A DNA stretch of 5,664 nucleotides from a virus. The stretch spans positions 1 to 5,664 of IMG/VR virus record IMGVR_UViG_3300045988_001410, one strand, 5' to 3'. Both the position numbers and the translations under genes were made by a program. A model generated the notes under the pieces. The model was not told where the DNA came from and did not search any database. It worked only from the letters and a program-made list of their open reading frames with translations. This document shows, one piece after another, positions 1 through 5,664 of the stretch (positions within the stretch are counted from its first letter, which is position 1; each line of letters begins with the position of its first letter).

Positions 1-55
1 TGCCATCCATATAGAATCATGTGGTAATGTGGCCGTGCTGTCTGTTCTCCGTATT
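1..55. repeat. Terminal direct repeat, 55 nt, identical to 5610..5664. It is the overlap of a circular assembly, giving a genome unit of 5609 nt.
   Basis: By direct comparison, tgccatccatatagaatcatgtggtaatgtggccgtgctgtctgttctccgtatt occurs at both ends of the window. The rep reading frame is continuous across the implied junction. Confidence 0.95.
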
Positions 56-386
56 CTCCTGCTACAAAATAGCGTAATTTGCCCCTATAAGCCTTTCTGA
101 GGCGTTTTAAGAATTTTTGAACGTCAGTATATAGTAACGTTTGAACGCTTTCAGGGCGCTTCTCTCCCGGCTTCCAGACGTATTGTACTTTTCGCATGAT
201 TTCGCCTGTGTTTACTATCATGCCTGGCACATGGTCATCGTCATAGGTTAGTGTTATAAACCAAACTTCTTCTCTTGGATAGTCTCGTGCTTCTAATTCT
301 ATTCGTGTTGTCCAGTCTTCCCTTTGTCTAATTCTGCATCCGATGCATTGCCCGCATGGTATCAACATGACATCTTTTCTATACAT
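1..386 (-). CDS. VP4: Replication initiator protein VP4 (HUH rolling-circle endonuclease), N-terminal 128 codons. It continues across the circular junction into 5609..5099, for 298 aa in total.
   Basis: Hand translation from the ATG at 386..384 gives MYRKDVMLIPCGQCIGCRIRQREDWTTRIELEARDYPREEVWFITLTYDDDHVPGM...RYFVAGEYGEQTARPHYHMILYGW. It carries PCGxCxxCR, the FITLTY motif 1 and the HYH (HUH) motif at 21..29. The frame matches the tracked ORF 5099..5629. No clear SD precedes 386, and an alternative ATG lies at 368. Confidence 0.9.
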   Translation of the reverse strand, partial: MYRKDVMLIPCGQCIGCRIRQREDWTTRIELEARDYPREEVWFITLTYDDDHVPGMIVNTGEIMRKVQYVWKPGEKRPESVQTLLYTDVQKFLKRLRKAYRGKLRYFVAGEYGEQTARPHYHMILYGW

Positions 387-407
387 CAAATTTTCATACT
401 TTAGCTG

Positions 408-458
408 TTGCCCGCTTATTTCAGAAAAGCGGGCAAGTGAATACACCCGCCCGCTTAT
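408..458 (-). promoter_or_regulatory. Three-part repeat able to form two mutually exclusive hairpins in the VP2-VP4 intergenic space. It is a possible weak terminator or attenuator, or an ssDNA structure.
   Basis: gcccgcttat occurs at 410..419 and 449..458, with an inverted copy aagcgggc at 427..434. Pairing option 1 is 408..417 with 427..436 (10 bp, 9-nt loop). Pairing option 2 is 427..434 with 449..456 (8 bp, 14-nt loop). In minus-strand RNA, option 2 is followed by UUCU, giving GCCCGCUUUUCU. Confidence 0.45.
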
Positions 459-505
459 GTCTTTATTTTCTGGGTTGTACAGCCTTATTAACGGTTTGTA
501 ACAAC

Positions 506-1375
506 TCATTTCAAATAATCGCCTGGCTTTCTCTTTTCTCCGTATGCTCCAGTTTTGTCTTGTGGCTTCATGCTTCTGCTCTGTCCTGCGCCTTGGCTTT
601 TTTCTGGCTTTGTTGTTGCTTTTTCGATTGCTTTGCTTGTGTCGTTTCCGACTTCTGTAAGTGCTTTTTGCAGTCCGTATGGCGTCATGTGTGTTGAGCT
701 TAGCATCTGCTGCCAGCTCTCTGCAGCATTGTACCAGTCACTTTTGCTCCAGCTTGAACTAGAGTATGCGTTTGGTACAAATCCTCCGCTTCGGCTAACT
801 CCTAGTGCGCTGCTGCTTGCAAGTCCCATACTTGCACCGCTGATTGTGCCGGCGCTTCCGCCCGGTGTGCTTGCTCCCCCATTTGAGAATGCTAGGATAG
901 GGTTAAGCCCCGCTTTTCGCATGTCCTCAACGGCTCGCTGGTATGCTGTGTTTGACATGTGTTCCTGCCATTCACGGTTTGCTAGTGCTTCTGCACTGTT
1001 GTAGTTCATTGCTACGCTGTTTTCAATGTGGTTGTATACGCCTTGCATGATTGCTTGTAAGGTGTTGTAACCCATTTGTTTAAGCATGCTTTGACTGTTG
1101 TATTTACCTTGCATGGCTGCTTCTTGCCCTTGGTATGCGTATGCCTGTTTTAGCCAGTCGTTGACCTGTTGCACGTTTGTGCCGGCTTGACTTCCGCTTT
1201 CCGAGTGTCCGCCTCCTTGGCTTGTGCTGCCTCCGCTGCTTTGGCTATTGCCTGTCTGTCCCCATCCGCCAAACGCTCCGGCTACGTTTTTAGCTGCTCC
1301 TGCAACAGTTCCGATTGTGTTTGCTACGTTTCCCGCTACGTTTAGCGCTGTTAAGAATCTTGATAATGCGCCCAT
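506..1375 (-). CDS. VP2: DNA pilot / minor capsid protein VP2 (289 aa)
   Basis: The tracked ORF lies immediately downstream of VP1. Gly/Ser/Ala-rich low-complexity arms flank a conserved-looking core, NREWQEHMSNTAYQRAVEDMRKAGLNPILAF, which is typical of gokushovirus VP2. Confidence 0.85.
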   Translation of the reverse strand: MGALSRFLTALNVAGNVANTIGTVAGAAKNVAGAFGGWGQTGNSQSSGGSTSQGGGHSESGSQAGTNVQQVNDWLKQAYAYQGQEAAMQGKYNSQSMLKQMGYNTLQAIMQGVYNHIENSVAMNYNSAEALANREWQEHMSNTAYQRAVEDMRKAGLNPILAFSNGGASTPGGSAGTISGASMGLASSSALGVSRSGGFVPNAYSSSSWSKSDWYNAAESWQQMLSSTHMTPYGLQKALTEVGNDTSKAIEKATTKPEKSQGAGQSRSMKPQDKTGAYGEKRKPGDYLK

Positions 1376-1413: not shown

Positions 1414-3093
1414 TTACAGTTTGTACAAGCCCGGTACGCTGTACAACGGCATCCGTCTTGTGGTTGCGTTTGCTATGCGGATCGCACCGAAAAATTGTGG
1501 CTCATTCTGGACGATTAACGTTCTTGCGATTTCTTCTTTTCCTTCTTTCATCCAGCCTTGTGACAGTGTCGGTGCGTTTGAATATTTGTCTGCATAGTGC
1601 CAGAAGTCTAATGTTCCTGTTGCATTGCTTCGCATTTTGCCGGATACCCGATTAGGCTTCATTCGGTAGTCTGCCCATGCTTCTTGGTATCCGAACGTTT
1701 CCTCATCCGTTGCATCGCCGGTTAACATGATTTCCTTCTTTTTTACCGGTTGCTCGCCCAGATTTGCAAACTGCGGTACATAGTAGTCCAGTCTGTCTTT
1801 TCGACTCCAGAAACGCTCCAAGCCTTGCTGGTAACTGTGATTGTGTCGTACACAACATACACCGATTATAAAGCCGTGCTCTTCAAATGATTTGGTAAAG
1901 CTGCTTTCGTTGATTGGCGTCACTGACATTGCGCCGGTTTCACCGATAGGCGTATCTTCTTGGCCCTGCTGTCCGCTTGTCTGTACAATCTGGTTGATAT
2001 TGATATGGTATCTGCCACCGCCAAGATATTCCGGCACTTGTACGGTTTTATCACTGATAACCACGTCCCACAGCGCCTGTACTTGTTCACGGTAACGGCT
2101 GCCACCTCTTGCCAGTGCTTCGTAGTATTGCTGTACTGCTACGGCTTTACGTAAGTCGTTGATGGTTGCTGCAGTTGTGTTGCTTAGGTTTGCGCCTAAA
2201 TAAGCCGTGTCGTCTACTTGTGCTGACGAGCTTGCGCTGCCTACTAATAGCCCATATCCTTTGTATTTTTCGTTTTGACTGTTTCCGATATGTGGCGCAA
2301 GTGCGTGTCCGCTTAGTGTCTGGTTCAAGAAGATTTCTTTGCGTCCCGTTGCCGTTTCAAACTCTTTTAGTGCTGTGTCTTTATACAATCCAACCGGTGC
2401 ATTACCAGTCAACGGCAGTGACGCTTCCGGCCCGCGCTGTGGATAAGGTAGGCAGCTTGTAAAGTAGTCGTGGAACTTATTTACAGGTAAGCATCGCCCA
2501 CCTGCAATTGCATTTTGCAGCATATCGTCAATATTTGCGCTTCTGTCTACGTAGGCTATGTCACTATCGTCTGTTTTGATTACTGCTGCGTTATCTACGT
2601 TTTCATCCCGGAAGTATTCGTTCCATATTTTTACGTATGCCCTGATAGGTAGTGCGTTGACACTGAAACTCTTTTTTACTTTTGTGGGCACTCCCATATA
2701 ATCTAGGATGCTTTCCTCTCTCGGTAGCCCTTCGTTTTCTGTGCCATTTATTTTAATTTCCGGCACTTTGTAATTTTTTACCGGCATCCATGGCTTATCT
2801 TCGACTTCTCCCATGAACTGTTTGAAATTATCCCACAGGATTCTGTTTGGACAGTAGAAGTAGTAGAAGTCGATGAATGCATCGTCGAAAACAGGATACT
2901 TTGGCGTCGTCATTCGGATGATTGCTGCTGTATTTACGTTGAATGTATCGCCTGGCAATACCTCGTCAACATAGAATGGAATCAGTTTGCCGGAATCGAA
3001 TGTCGTGAGAATTGTCTGGTCACGGTTGAATCGTGTTCGGCTTGCTTTCATTTCTGGAATTTGGTTGAAGTGCCGTTCATTGTTTCGGTTCAC
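1414..3093 (-). CDS. VP1: Major capsid protein VP1 (F-like jelly-roll capsid, 559 aa), with a GTG start
   Basis: This is the largest ORF. Its N-terminus, FNQIPEMKASRTRFNRDQTILTTFDSGKLIPFYVDEVLPGDTF, is characteristic of Microviridae capsid proteins. The start codon is GTG (complement of cac at 3091..3093), preceded by AAAGGAGGAAGAAAA. It overlaps the VP3 stop as GTGA. Confidence 0.93.
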   Translation of the reverse strand: MNRNNERHFNQIPEMKASRTRFNRDQTILTTFDSGKLIPFYVDEVLPGDTFNVNTAAIIRMTTPKYPVFDDAFIDFYYFYCPNRILWDNFKQFMGEVEDKPWMPVKNYKVPEIKINGTENEGLPREESILDYMGVPTKVKKSFSVNALPIRAYVKIWNEYFRDENVDNAAVIKTDDSDIAYVDRSANIDDMLQNAIAGGRCLPVNKFHDYFTSCLPYPQRGPEASLPLTGNAPVGLYKDTALKEFETATGRKEIFLNQTLSGHALAPHIGNSQNEKYKGYGLLVGSASSSAQVDDTAYLGANLSNTTAATINDLRKAVAVQQYYEALARGGSRYREQVQALWDVVISDKTVQVPEYLGGGRYHININQIVQTSGQQGQEDTPIGETGAMSVTPINESSFTKSFEEHGFIIGVCCVRHNHSYQQGLERFWSRKDRLDYYVPQFANLGEQPVKKKEIMLTGDATDEETFGYQEAWADYRMKPNRVSGKMRSNATGTLDFWHYADKYSNAPTLSQGWMKEGKEEIARTLIVQNEPQFFGAIRIANATTRRMPLYSVPGLYKL

Positions 3094-3488
3094 TTTTCTT
3101 CCTCCTTTGCTTTAGGTTCTATTGCTGGTTCTTCTTTTGCTGCTTTCTGCAGTTCTTCCAGCTTCATGGCGTTTGCCTGTGCTGTTGCAATCATGCGATG
3201 ATATTCGTGAATGTTCTGCGGAAATTCGGTGATATCAACTTCTGTTCCTTCCAGTGCTCCCTGTGACAGACTTTTCAGAAATTGCGGGTCAAAGCTCGCT
3301 TTTCTTACAATGTTTTTGATATCGCATTCGTCTGAATAGCTTTCGATTTCCTGTTGGATGTCGATTGGTTCGGTTTCTTGTAGCACTTCTTCGTTTTTCT
3401 CGTTTTTTGTCCAGACGTATTGTTTTCGGAGTGTATCTCCTGATGCCGAAAAGAAGGGCTCTCGCCCTTCTTCGTATCGTTTATTCAT
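3090..3488 (-). CDS. VP3: Internal scaffolding protein VP3 (132 aa from the ATG at 3488; the track extends it to 3542)
   Basis: It lies directly upstream of VP1. It is acidic, with the motif SYSDECDIKNIVRKASFDPQFL, which resembles the ECDINNIV block of gokushovirus VP3. The ATG at 3488 has a GGGAGGG SD 9 nt upstream and overlaps the VP5 stop as ATGAATAA. The ATG at 3542 has no SD. Confidence 0.8.
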   Translation of the reverse strand: MNKRYEEGREPFFSASGDTLRKQYVWTKNEKNEEVLQETEPIDIQQEIESYSDECDIKNIVRKASFDPQFLKSLSQGALEGTEVDITEFPQNIHEYHRMIATAQANAMKLEELQKAAKEEPAIEPKAKEEEK

Positions 3489-3720
3489 GTGGCTTGCCCT
3501 CCCAAATTTTCTCTTTCCAGTTCTGGAAAAGTCCCGTCTCATCTTCGAATTCTGCCAGTTTGTAACCTGTGTAGTCCTGCGGACTCTGCCCGATGAAGGT
3601 CTTTTCGTCCTTTGCCATTACGTTGCACATACGTGCGAACGTTGCATCGTTTTTGCTTTCGCCTACCCATGCATAGCATTTTGCTACATCGTCCCAGATG
3701 CCATAATAGTTGTGTTTCAT
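3481..3720 (-). CDS. VP5: VP5-like non-structural protein (79 aa)
   Basis: The pattern MKHNYYGIWDDVAKCYAWVGES..ATFARMC....PQDYTGYKLAEFEDETGLF matches my recollection of gokushovirus VP5 (N-terminal YD.ka..f, then P.D..L..iG.fDd.tG). The SD AAAGGAA lies 8 nt upstream. Confidence 0.7.
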   Translation of the reverse strand: MKHNYYGIWDDVAKCYAWVGESKNDATFARMCNVMAKDEKTFIGQSPQDYTGYKLAEFEDETGLFQNWKEKIWEGKPHE

Positions 3721-4195: not shown

Positions 4196-4588
4196 TTATA
4201 CCCCCTTTCTATATTTGCTGGTTCGTACATCGAAGTGTACCCAACTTCTGTATACGATAATGCCACATTCATCCGGTACAATTTCATTCAGTATGTTGGC
4301 TATCTGTTTCGGTGTCATTCCATTTATTCGGATGTCTGCTGCCATACCGCGCATGTGGTAGCTATATTTTGCTCCATTACATTTTTTGTTCCACTCCGGT
4401 GTTCTGTATCCGCTGGTGATAATTACCGGTTTTCCTAGTTTGCATCTTAGGATGTCCAGAACGGTATATAAGTAGTCGTCTATGAACACTACTGGACTTC
4501 CGTCTTTGCAAGCAAATTCTTTTACTTTGAAGTGTTTTGCAAGTTGTATATTTCCGTCAGTTTCTACAATGTAGCTTTTAATGCTCAT
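4196..4588 (-). CDS. Zinc D-Ala-D-Ala-carboxypeptidase-fold peptidase, M15 family (M15A / Peptidase_M15_3-like), a putative peptidoglycan hydrolase or lysin (130 aa)
   Basis: The sequence ...FKVKEFACKDGS...VIITSGYRTPEWNKKCNGAKYSYHMRGMAADI...WVHFDVR fits SGYR, the SxHxxGxAxD zinc-binding block and the distal H.D. The ATG at 4588 has the SD GAGGT 7 nt upstream. The tracked TTG at 4642 is part of the promoter -35 hexamer. Confidence 0.85.
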   Translation of the reverse strand: MSIKSYIVETDGNIQLAKHFKVKEFACKDGSPVVFIDDYLYTVLDILRCKLGKPVIITSGYRTPEWNKKCNGAKYSYHMRGMAADIRINGMTPKQIANILNEIVPDECGIIVYRSWVHFDVRTSKYRKGV

Positions 4589-4613
4589 GGCCGTTACCTC
4601 ACTTTTTGTTTTG

Positions 4614-4660
4614 ATAATATCATTTTTTTTGTCGCTTGTCAATTGTTTTTTGTTTTGAAT
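4614..4660 (-). promoter_or_regulatory. Near-consensus sigma70-type promoter (UP-like A-tract, -35, extended -10) driving the peptidase and downstream genes
   Basis: The minus strand reads ATTCAAAACAAAAAACAA TTGACA AGCGACAAAAAAAATGA TATTAT CAAAACAAAAAGTGAGGTAACGGCC ATG. The -35 TTGACA is at 4642..4637, the spacer is 17 nt, the extended TG is at 4622..4621, and the -10 TATTAT is at 4619..4614. Confidence 0.75.
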
Positions 4661-4674
4661 GGCGCTTTAGCGCC
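4661..4674. repeat. Short hairpin ggcgc-ttta-gcgcc, the first copy of the 10-mer CGCTTTAGCG
   Basis: A 5-bp stem with a 4-nt loop. The 10-mer cgctttagcg (4663..4672) recurs at 4868..4877. Confidence 0.6.
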
Positions 4675-4733
4675 TTGCCGTGCGTAGCGTATGCGGAGCT
4701 CGGCCTATCCATTCCTTGTAAGCGCTGTGCGCG

Positions 4734-4908
4734 TTTTCAACACTTTCAACACTTTCAACAGGTTTTCCACAAAATGTTGCACAATGATTTTCGTCATTTT
4801 GACAGACTTTCAACAATTCAACAAGTTTTTAACAAAACTTTTAACAGTGATTTTCTTCTTTTATTTACGCTTTAGCGTTAAATTTTAGCACTTTTCAACT
4901 TTTCCACA
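4734..4908. repeat. Array of about 12 degenerate 8-9-bp repeats (T-tract + CAACA/TAACA/CCACA/TGACA), including a 3x tandem 9-mer. Candidate iterons and/or intrinsically curved DNA.
   Basis: Copies: TTTTCAACA 4734, CTTTCAACA 4743, 4752 and 4807, TTTTCCACA 4763 and 4900, (weak) GTTGCACA 4776, ATTTTGACA 4796, ATTCAACA 4816, TTTTTAACA 4826, CTTTTAACA 4838, CTTTTCAAC 4891. Spacings between adjacent copies within each cluster are 9-13 bp; the clusters (4734..4783, 4796..4846, 4891..4908) are separated by longer gaps. Confidence 0.8.
4867..4878. repeat. Second CGCTTTAGCG hairpin (acgc-ttta-gcgt)
   Basis: The same 10-mer as 4663..4672. The two copies bracket the main block of the repeat array. Confidence 0.55.
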
Positions 4909-4943
4909 GCCTCTACTACTACTCCTACAACAAGTTAATATTA

Positions 4944-4990
4944 TATCGCGCGTGCGCGCGTGCGCGCTATCGCGCGTGCGTGCTATCGCG
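4944..4990. repeat. CpG-rich alternating pyrimidine-purine (CG/TG) tract punctuated by three TATCGCG units
   Basis: The tract reads tatcgcgcgtgcgcgcgtgcgcgc tatcgcgcgtgcgtgc tatcgcg. tatcgcgcgtgcg is repeated exactly at 4944..4956 and 4968..4980, with a third tatcgcg at 4984..4990. Uninterrupted Py-Pu alternation runs over 4947..4967 and 4971..4983. Confidence 0.85.
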
Positions 4991-5045
4991 AATTAGATTA
5001 TTTGATAGACTGGATAGTGTGATACATGGAGACTTTAGACGACAT

Positions 5046-5081
5046 CTAGCCCAGTTCCTTACTTGATAGGAACTGGGCTAG
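5046..5081. repeat. Perfect 14-bp inverted repeat with an 8-nt loop, 18 nt beyond the VP4 stop
   Basis: ctagcccagttcct (5046..5059), loop tacttgat (5060..5067), aggaactgggctag (5068..5081). No T-run follows on either strand. Confidence 0.9.
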
Positions 5082-5082
5082 G

Positions 5083-5108
5083 TGACACTATGACACTGTT
5101 AAAGTGTC
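5083..5108. repeat. GACACT repeats: two direct TGACACT copies plus one inverted copy forming a hairpin around the VP4 stop codon
   Basis: tgacact occurs at 5083..5089 and 5091..5097. gacact (5092..5097) pairs with agtgtc (5103..5108) across the loop gttaa, which contains the TAA complement (5099..5101). Confidence 0.7.
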
Positions 5109-5664
5109 CCCTTTTTTTTCATCTGCTTCTTTATCACCCTTTCTTTTGTTTTACATTGTTCTGCGAAGTCTGCGTTTTCATACTTTAGCCTGTTTTCTGC
5201 GATTGCAGCTGCCTGCCTGTTCTGTTTAATTCTCCATAACCTTTGTGGGTTTTCAGCTTCCATCATTTTTTCATAATAGCGTGGAATTTGTGCGCGTTTG
5301 CCGTTTGTGCATTGGATATACCCTTGTTTCCATATCTCTGCTTTGTGTTCTTGATAGTAGTGATCTCCTAAGCCTGGTTTAAGGCTCATACATGCGAATG
5401 GCTTTGTTTGTCCTAGTTCATAGTATTCGTTTGCTTTTGCTCCGTCTATCTCGTACATTTTTTTTGTTACATATCCTGCAACATATCTATATGTTGCGGG
5501 CACTGCTTGCGCTATCTGTATTTGACCCATGCCCCATAGGTTTTCTAGCCACTTACTTGTGAAGTATCCGTTGTGTTGTATCTTGTATAGGTGCTTTAGG
5601 TCTGTTGGTTGCCATCCATATAGAATCATGTGGTAATGTGGCCGTGCTGTCTGTTCTCCGTATT
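5099..5664 (-). CDS. VP4: Replication initiator protein VP4, C-terminal part. Positions 5610..5664 duplicate 1..55, and the true continuation of 1..386 is 5609..5099.
   Basis: The tracked ORF contains RYVAGYVTKK, with Tyr codons at 5485..5483 and 5473..5471. This is the YxxxY catalytic pair, as in phiX174 gpA YVAKYVNKK. It is preceded by HYHMILYGW, and the TAA stop is at 5099..5101. Confidence 0.92.
   Translation of the reverse strand, partial: YGEQTARPHYHMILYGWQPTDLKHLYKIQHNGYFTSKWLENLWGMGQIQIAQAVPATYRYVAGYVTKKMYEIDGAKANEYYELGQTKPFACMSLKPGLGDHYYQEHKAEIWKQGYIQCTNGKRAQIPRYYEKMMEAENPQRLWRIKQNRQAAAIAENRLKYENADFAEQCKTKERVIKKQMKKKGTL
5610..5664. repeat. Second copy of the 55-nt terminal repeat (see 1..55)
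   Basis: An exact match to 1..55. Confidence 0.95.

Follow-up and report, generated by a model that had tools for sequence, protein, structure and literature searches.

The stretch of DNA analysed here (the window) covers 5,664 nt of the virus record IMGVR_UViG_3300045988_001410 in the IMG/VR database. It represents a complete circular gokushovirus genome of 5,609 nt, since its first and last 55 bases are identical. The minus strand carries every recognisable gene, including rep, which encodes the replication initiator VP4. On the plus strand, 17 nt from the rep stop codon, lies a perfect 14-bp hairpin with the 8-nt loop TACTTGAT. Read on the plus strand, this hairpin is probably the rolling-circle (viral-strand) origin of the phage and the counterpart of the phiX174 origin; the reading is based on sequence comparison of the loop, the stem, the flank and the initiator.

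Structure of the hairpin element

The stem of the hairpin extends to 17 bp (5043-5084) when one mismatch is allowed. The predicted DNA fold of 5030-5125 reached -21.7 kcal/mol, compared with -6.3 +/- 2.0 kcal/mol for shuffled sequences (z=-7.6), and none of the 200 shuffles was as good. We estimate that an inverted repeat of 14 bp without mismatches, enclosing a short loop, would arise by chance about 4e-4 times in 5.6 kb. The hairpin is a non-chance structure. Next to it are two direct copies of TGACACT and one inverted copy (Table 1), and the latter forms a small hairpin (GACACT/AGTGTC) whose loop GTTAA encloses the rep stop codon (5099-5101, minus strand). The inverted repeat, its loop, the three short repeats and the enclosed stop codon had been noticed earlier by inspection of the sequence (the original prediction) and are present exactly as described there; the distance from the stem to the stop codon, however, had been given as 18 nt and is actually 17 nt. 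The second copy of TTGATAG reported at the same time is also present, at 5002-5008. It belongs to TTATTTGATAG, a one-mismatch copy of the loop region TTACTTGATAG that lies 61 nt upstream on the same strand.

The nick-site core of phiX174 and the VP4 initiator

In the phiX174 genome (J02482), the 'origin of viral strand synthesis' is annotated as a rep_origin feature within CAACTTGATATTAATAACACTATAGACCAC, at position 4306, which is the A following CAACTTG; this sequence was given correctly in the original prediction. The loop core ACTTGAT is the same as the annotated nick-site core (CAACTTG/ATA). The octamer ACTTGATA at 5061-5068 on the plus strand matches phiX174 4301-4308 over 8 nt, whereas the two bases at the 5' side are TT in the window and CA in phiX174. 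We estimate a probability of around 1e-3 for a chance match between the loop core and the phiX174 recognition decamer.

The initiator proteins are also related. VP4 is a member of PF23343, and the Pfam search of VP4 returned this family only, with no helicase domain. Its segments RPHYHMIL and YVAGYVTKK align with RLHFHAV and YVAKYVNKK of the phiX174 A protein; judging from this alignment, VP4 shares the HUH and Y-x3-Y catalytic motifs with the A protein. The 30-bp tripartite organisation of the phiX174 origin (recognition sequence, AT-rich spacer and key binding sequence) is not seen in the window, where a stem arm replaces the spacer. By sequence, the element is thus a putative variant of the phiX174-type origin and not the identical 30-bp unit. 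An extended similarity to the phiX174 30-mer, with 'GAC' at an equal distance, was dropped as evidence, since by count it was not above the chance level.

Conservation of the element among microviruses

Homologous elements were collected from IMG/VR in two ways. Pattern scans with GTGTCAC-N(8-22)-ATCAAGTA and two sub-patterns retrieved at least about 340 microvirus genomes, in which VP1 is merely 24-50% identical to that of the window, and the arms are self-complementary with very different sequences. Two other sets were assembled without the motif: 80 close relatives retrieved by protein similarity (Rep 89-96% identical), and 61 genomes chosen by the Rep protein only. Rep clusters were defined at 60% identity. 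The matches listed from the scans comprise 84 clusters and 272 unique elements, and all counts of clusters and unique elements given below as parts of these totals refer to the matches listed.

The family has a common layout, which consists of the covarying stem, the TACTTGAT loop, 13-14 nt, and then GTGACAC. This layout is shared by microviruses of at least 80 Rep clusters, the Chlamydia phage Chp2 among them. The 272 unique elements contain 163 different arms, and their longest perfect stem has a mean of 10.5 bp, compared with 4.0 bp when the 5' flank was swapped between Rep clusters. The spacing from TACTTGAT to GTGACAC is 13 or 14 nt in 267 of them.

The gap-free alignment A1 was made from 38 elements of other lineages, none of which belongs to the clade of the window, and the covariance model R1 was derived from it. 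Both sides change in 13 of the 13 pairs of A1; 85% of the paired cells are complementary, as compared with 65% in shuffles (0 of 500 reached the observed value) and 27-40% when the partners were slid. R1 matched the window at full length with 52.8 bits (E=3.5e-15), and matched Chp2 at 2898-2950 (E=0.0014). One element per genome was found with this model. Two IMG/VR contigs, L110 (8,974 nt) and L439, are head-to-tail concatemers of about 1.9 genome units, and in L110 the element occurs twice, at a distance of 4,708 nt, which matters for such per-genome counts. In the sample chosen by Rep only, a significant R1 match was present in 60 of the 61 new genomes, usually about 200 nt upstream of rep, and the related flank GTGACAG or GTGATAG also occurs among the genomes found without the GTGACAC motif. 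In this part of the Gokushovirinae, the element is thus almost always present.

Among the named phages, the gene strand of Chp2, a gokushovirus available as an isolate, reads CTAGCGTATAACAG-tcTACTTGAT-CTGTTATACGCTAG-GTGATAGC between VP3 and ORF8 (open reading frame 8). The same loop and flank occur on the gene strand of the Ciona-gut microvirus MH572425, between VP3 and rep. SpV4 has a weak relative, a hairpin at 512-544 with the loop atTACTTGTTata (E=1.2), and no element was detectable in phiMH2K by searches that included R1.

Among the close relatives, the hairpin directly follows the rep stop codon in all 76 genomes with sequence at this place, and the loop on the rep strand is ATCAAGTA in all 76. 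Their stems show compensatory changes, for example from CCCAGT/ACTGGG to CCAAGT/ACTTGG or CCTAGT/ACTAGG, and from GTACC/GGTAC to GTTCC/GGAAC (the window) or GTGCC/GGCAC (L077). One to three copies of RGTGTCAY precede the hairpin on the rep strand. In one relative (L023), a 24-nt unit (GGTTAGCCTGACTAACTGGGCACC) is repeated three times in tandem and inserted between the rep stop codon and the GTGTCAC flank. A check of stem-arm covariation in related genomes had been proposed together with the original prediction; the arms covary in both close and distant relatives. The conserved loop, the covarying stem and the flank at a fixed distance support the proposal that this is an origin-like element for a HUH Rep.

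Two bacterial records also contain element sequences. In the chromosome of Natronospirillum operosum G-116 (NZ_SRMF01000001.1), the element GGTGTCACCTAGACCAGTTACATCAAGTA is a spacer (L405, 3535-3563) in an array of clustered regularly interspaced short palindromic repeats (CRISPR), with 32-nt type I-C-like repeats (GTTTCTATCCGCGCGCCCGCGTGGGGCGCGAC); the protospacer begins at TACTTGAT after TTC. Through this spacer, one lineage of canonical gokushoviruses is linked to a gammaproteobacterium as host, and the invariant site is seen to be a target of host immunity. The spacer boundary at TACTTGAT was considered as a clue to the nick site and rejected, since TTC as the protospacer-adjacent motif explains the boundary. 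The other record, a 489-kb contig of a Methylobacillus metagenome-assembled genome (L410, 2774-2802), has an orphan fragment of about 30 nt that corresponds to the flank, one arm and the loop, without the second arm. This fragment is intergenic, and no microvirus genes were found within 8 kb of it.

Orientation of the element and base skew

TACTTGAT is located on the gene strand in 76 of the 84 Rep clusters, the orientation also seen in phiX174 and Chp2. In five clusters among the matches listed, the asymmetric element is inverted as a whole; these are the gut clade of the window (118 genomes), L132, L110/L249, L260 and L190. Outside the gut clade, the inverted elements keep the usual position between VP3 and rep. 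The five clusters represent four independent lineages by VP1 and Rep similarity, as L132 and L260 group together; the nearest relatives of each inverted lineage are canonical and have much lower skew values.

The skew, (A-T)/(A+T), was calculated for the coding strand of VP1 and rep from their fourfold-degenerate sites. It ranges from -0.92 to +0.58 (median -0.47) in the canonical clusters and from +0.57 to +0.72 in the five inverted clusters. The value is +0.67 for the window genes (A 298 and T 58 of 522 sites), -0.58 for gene A of phiX174, and -0.33 for Chp2. The inverted clusters fill five of the top six skew ranks (Mann-Whitney p=1e-4, or 4e-4 when they are counted as four lineages). The sample chosen by Rep only served as a prospective test, in which R1 found three inverted genomes that the pattern scans had missed, namely L449 and L454, which are related, and L466. 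These genomes have the flank GTGACAG, and their skews (+0.75, +0.73 and +0.67) are the three highest of the sample, in which the canonical genomes have a mean of -0.20 and a maximum of +0.48. They are not closest to the earlier inverted lineages, which brings the total to six independent inverted lineages.

At fourfold sites, the strand that is rich in T is thus the TACTTGAT strand in each of the six inverted lineages and in the majority of the canonical lineages, with exceptions that include the L120 cluster. Canonical-orientation genomes with an A-rich coding strand (+0.25 to +0.62) are L120, L125, L135, L312, L321, L140, L384 and the L307 cluster, together with phiMH2K. Single-stranded DNA phages are known to have T-rich third codon positions, a bias explained by C-to-T deamination of their single strand (PMC3278643). 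Read most simply, the strand with TACTTGAT would be the one present in single-stranded form, irrespective of the direction of the genes. In the clade of the window, the identity of the single-stranded strand appears to depend on the candidate origin rather than on the gene set.

These results bear on two doubts raised in the original prediction. The resemblance to phiX174 was considered possibly coincidental, which no longer holds, because TACTTGAT is on the gene strand in most clusters, as in phiX174. It was also cautioned that the octamer lies on the strand that Rep is not expected to nick, because microviruses package the mRNA-sense strand. The octamer is indeed on the non-coding strand; however, the assumption about packaging seems to fail here, where the element is inverted and the skew is flipped. 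The origin may be flipped relative to the genes in this abundant gut clade of humans and animals and in at least five other independent lineages, with the antisense strand being displaced and packaged. We put this forward tentatively; these phages would be the first 'negative-sense' Microviridae.

Proposed mechanism

In the supercoiled replicative-form DNA, the 14-bp inverted repeat would extrude as a cruciform or melt, and TACTTGAT would be exposed as an 8-nt loop. VP4, a HUH endonuclease with two catalytic tyrosines, might dock on the neighbouring GTGACAC repeats, which are candidate binding sites. It would then cut TACTTG/AT, with the nick predicted between G5065 and A5066, and remain joined to the 5' end. 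The 3' OH would be extended by the host polymerase while the plus strand is displaced; one round later, the regenerated site would be cut and the displaced strand ligated into a circle. If the plus strand is nicked, it is therefore also the strand that is displaced and, in microviruses, packaged, so that the virion DNA would be antisense to all genes. As the element is inverted relative to all genes in the clade, the packaged strand would be the non-coding one.

No second origin-like site was found on the coding strand of the window; every site that equals TACTTGAT or differs from it by one mismatch (four in all) lies on the plus strand. The conserved coding-strand block AACTTGTTGT was considered as an origin and not adopted, because it has two mismatches and no hairpin and is inverted in some relatives.

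Alternative functions of the hairpin

The orientation result excludes functions of the duplex that are independent of polarity, as well as functions tied to the direction of transcription. The remaining strand-polar replication roles are a Rep nick origin and a complementary-strand (single-strand) origin, at which host primase, RNA polymerase or a PriA-type primosome would start the second strand on the incoming virion DNA. The latter is the less probable role and the main rival of the nick origin. As single-stranded DNA the hairpin is stable, and it is oriented with the T-biased strand, just as a single-strand origin would be. Hairpins with invariant loops in other microvirus clades have tentatively been read in this way (PMC9865509). 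The nick origin is nevertheless favoured for several reasons. The loop holds the cleavage heptamer of phiX174, which is no known priming signal, and the two initiators are homologous at their catalytic motifs. Phages that infect Chlamydia and a gammaproteobacterium have the loop and the flank in common, which fits recognition by the phage Rep better than recognition by a host factor; single-strand origins that depend on host factors are usually host-specific. Finally, the element always neighbours rep (17 nt after its stop codon here, about 200 nt upstream of it in the canonical genomes), and iteron-like repeats are present at the element.

The primosome assembly site of phiX174 and the complementary-strand origin of G4 (oriC) are priming sites of this type. 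They are intergenic hairpins on the packaged strand of a microvirus and work in one orientation only, as would be the case for the present element; unlike it, they are recognised by host PriA or DnaG and are not adjacent to rep. We know of no sequence common to the TACTTGAT element and these sites.

It is improbable that the hairpin is a protein-binding site with a non-nicking role, such as a rep operator, a signal for packaging or for the switch to single-stranded DNA that is bound by VP5 or VP8, or another single-strand site. The conserved asymmetric GTGACAC flank with its variable extra copies does resemble a binding array, and the canonical element, about 200 nt upstream of rep, is in a possible operator position. 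However, an operator should hold its orientation and position relative to rep, whereas the element in the clade of the window is inverted and follows the rep stop codon. A role in double-stranded DNA only would leave it unexplained that the skew follows the orientation, and to our knowledge no packaging signal of the Microviridae is known apart from the origin.

The possibility of an intrinsic terminator or a 3' stabiliser of the rep mRNA, acting as an RNA hairpin 17 nt past the stop codon, is very slight, although the hairpin directly follows the last gene before a large intergenic region, and in some relatives the stem is followed on the coding strand by a short run of bases rich in T, such as GGGCTTTTGTCGTC. 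The terminator scan did not flag the 14-bp hairpin on either strand, and in the window neither strand has a U-tract after the stem. In the canonical context, the coding strand reads hairpin-GTGACACC-AAAA, with an A-run instead of a T-run, and the element is between VP3 and rep. The terminator reading was rejected on these two grounds. Moreover, a terminator has no need for an invariant loop and a flank at a fixed distance across Rep clusters of about 30% identity, and could not be inverted relative to the genes. The statement in the original prediction that the T-run of a terminator is lacking is thus right for the 14-bp hairpin. One correction concerns the small second hairpin (5092-5108), which is followed by CCCC and T8 on the plus strand and was flagged as terminator-like; this was one site against 0.9 expected by chance, and its T-run is not kept in relatives. 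The Rfam 15 scan of the window gave nothing relevant, with Termite-leu at 374-459 as the sole match, below threshold (E=0.74).

The 14-8-14 palindrome also has the geometry of a tyrosine recombinase core site (Xer/dif-like or lox-like) for integration or dimer resolution, with inverted arms around an 8-bp asymmetric spacer, and some gokushoviruses do integrate at dif via XerCD (PMC7062461); this least probable reading was rejected on the conservation pattern, which is reversed (the spacer is invariant and the arms are free), while elements between phage genes are intact in microvirus sequence on 30-44 kb bacterial contigs (L399 and L400), and the orientation tracks the base skew, unlike that of a double-stranded recombination site.

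Several points weigh against the origin reading as proposed. The pattern scans fix TACTTGAT and GTGACAC, and the invariance of these motifs in the genomes so retrieved is by construction. Outside the 7-8 nt core, the 30-bp phiX174 origin matches the window at about the chance level by our count; the phiX174 origin has no hairpin, and R1 gives no match on phiX174. Three of the 76 canonical clusters (the L120 cluster, L312 and L321) have a coding-strand skew of at least +0.5, and phiMH2K shows +0.25 to +0.34 with no detectable element. The GC skew at fourfold sites lacks the expected flip and gave no consistent signal. An inverted origin also implies head-on replication and transcription, which is unusual, though allowed. 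Moreover, the polarity evidence does not separate the nick origin from a complementary-strand origin, as both would be on the packaged strand and would have the same link to the skew.

Comparison with known systems

The candidate nick origin and the phiX174 origin share the nick-site core ACTTGAT(A), a homologous initiator, the phage family and the logic of rolling-circle replication, and the motif of phiX174 is on the gene (viral) strand, as in the canonical gokushoviruses. The phiX174 origin differs in that it lies within gene A and has an AT-rich spacer without a hairpin, whereas the site in the window is intergenic and is the 8-nt loop of a covarying 14-bp stem; in the clade of the window, the motif is on the strand opposite to the genes.

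A loop-borne nick motif, as predicted here, adjoining iterons and the combination of a variable stem with a conserved loop are also found in the circular Rep-encoding single-stranded (CRESS) DNA viruses (circo-, gemini- and nanoviruses) and in plasmids such as pMV158. The CRESS-DNA viruses have the nonanucleotide NANTATTAC in their loop, whereas the loop of the window is TACTTGAT; their Rep combines HUH with a superfamily 3 helicase, whereas VP4 has two catalytic tyrosines and no such helicase. The architecture likened to CRESS-DNA viruses in the original prediction, a stem-loop with iterons, can thus be retained as an analogy, while the nonanucleotide and the helicase domain are absent. Since the two groups are in different virus realms, the comparison is best taken as an architectural analogy and not as membership.

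The hairpins described in roodoodoo- and reekeekee-microviruses (PMC9865509) are intergenic, lie by rep, and have an identical loop with compensatory stem changes. They belong to different small clades, and the text portions of that report used here give no sequence motif. Its authors left the function of the hairpins open, leaning to a primosome-type complementary-strand role, and drew no link to the phiX174 nick site or to strand polarity. In the open-access literature searched, we found no mapped origin of the Gokushovirinae, no report of this motif and no microvirus nick site; an earlier mention in the original genome papers of phiMH2K and Chp2 is possible. The origin is not discussed in the paper on the resurrection of enterobacterial gokushoviruses (PMC7062461).

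Genome organisation and the intergenic region

The nearest GenBank records are gokushoviruses from the human and pig gut, with 76-87% identity. The features of the window are listed in Table 1; rep is split by the window ends, owing to circular permutation. The gene order in the clade of the window is rep, hairpin, intergenic region, peptidase, VP3, VP1 and VP2, and the canonical order is VP1, VP2, VP3, hairpin and rep. The sole long non-coding stretch is 4643-5098, with the hairpin at its rep-proximal end.

Table 1. Coordinates of the hairpin element, genes and other features in the window.
Feature	Position	Strand	Remark
Whole conserved element, hairpin and 3' flank	5040..5090	+	Full-length match of covariance model R1
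Stem 5' arm CTAGCCCAGTTCCT	5046..5059	+	Covaries with 3' arm in relatives
Loop TACTTGAT, 8 nt	5060..5067	+	Holds predicted Rep nick G5065/A5066
Stem 3' arm AGGAACTGGGCTAG	5068..5081	+	Compensatory changes in relatives
Conserved flank GTGACAC, candidate Rep-binding sequence	5082..5088	+	14 nt (5068-5081) after TACTTGAT
TGACACT direct copies, iteron-like	5083-5089 and 5091-5097	+	Copy number 1-3 in close relatives
Inverted copy AGTGTC	5103..5108	+	Pairs with 5092-5097 (6 bp); within last rep codons
Degenerate loop-motif copy TTATTTGATAG, no hairpin	4998..5008	+	Kept in close relatives as CTATCAAATA (rep strand)
GC-rich alternating pyrimidine-purine tract	4943..4990		Upstream of hairpin on the TACTTGAT strand
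Terminal direct repeat, 55 nt	1-55 and 5610-5664		Sequence identity; circularly permuted genome
Major capsid protein VP1	3093..1414	-	Phage_F, E=1e-136
289-aa open reading frame, VP2 position	1375..506	-	
Scaffold VP3	3542..3090	-	
VP5	3720..3481	-	
M15 peptidase	4642..4196	-	
VP4/Rep, 3' part, stop codon 5099-5101	5099..5664	-	PF23343, E=3.8e-18; gene resumes at 56-509
VP4/Rep, 5' part, ATG 509-507	1..509	-	339-aa initiator spanning the junction

A near-consensus sigma-70-type promoter (TTGACA-17-TATTAT with TG, 11/12) is located at 4642-4614 on the minus strand, directly upstream of the M15 peptidase gene. The sequence of this promoter hints at a host with canonical sigma-70 promoters.

The intergenic region has further features. 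The GC-rich tract is of the CGCGCGTG type, prone to Z-DNA and partly palindromic, and the rest of the genome has 44% GC. Such a tract lies within 300 nt of the element in 2 of the 84 Rep clusters; in both, it is 5' of the hairpin on the TACTTGAT strand, though the gene orientations are opposite. In 6 of the 80 close relatives (L009, L020, L035, L051, L058 and L061), an intergenic module of about 210 nt (4733-4945 in the window) runs in the opposite direction with respect to rep and the hairpin, while its flanks are not flipped. Within the module are AACTTGTTGTAG, a (TAG)n run and about eight repeats similar to TGTTGAAA; the breakpoints of the module adjoin the GC-rich tract and GCGCACAGCGC. 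No other non-coding block is as widely conserved among the gut gokushoviruses as one part of the module (4892-4946).

Significance

In viromes from the gut, the sea and fresh water, the Gokushovirinae dominate among the microviruses. The element described here occurs almost throughout the subfamily, which it connects with the classic phiX174 system. It is a precise and testable origin candidate: a site of 50 nt, with the nick predicted to fall between two specified bases and with a motif that may serve for binding. It may be used as a marker to orient microvirus genomes and to set their start position, or as a minimal origin for gokushovirus-based vectors. If the inverted orientation corresponds to the packaged strand, a major gut clade would contradict the textbook view that the mRNA-sense strand is the one packaged by microviruses. 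The flip would then show itself as a complete reversal of the third-position T bias, a hallmark of single-stranded DNA phages, and it would affect the interpretation of strand-specific libraries, models of mutation bias, host prediction from codon usage, and probe design.

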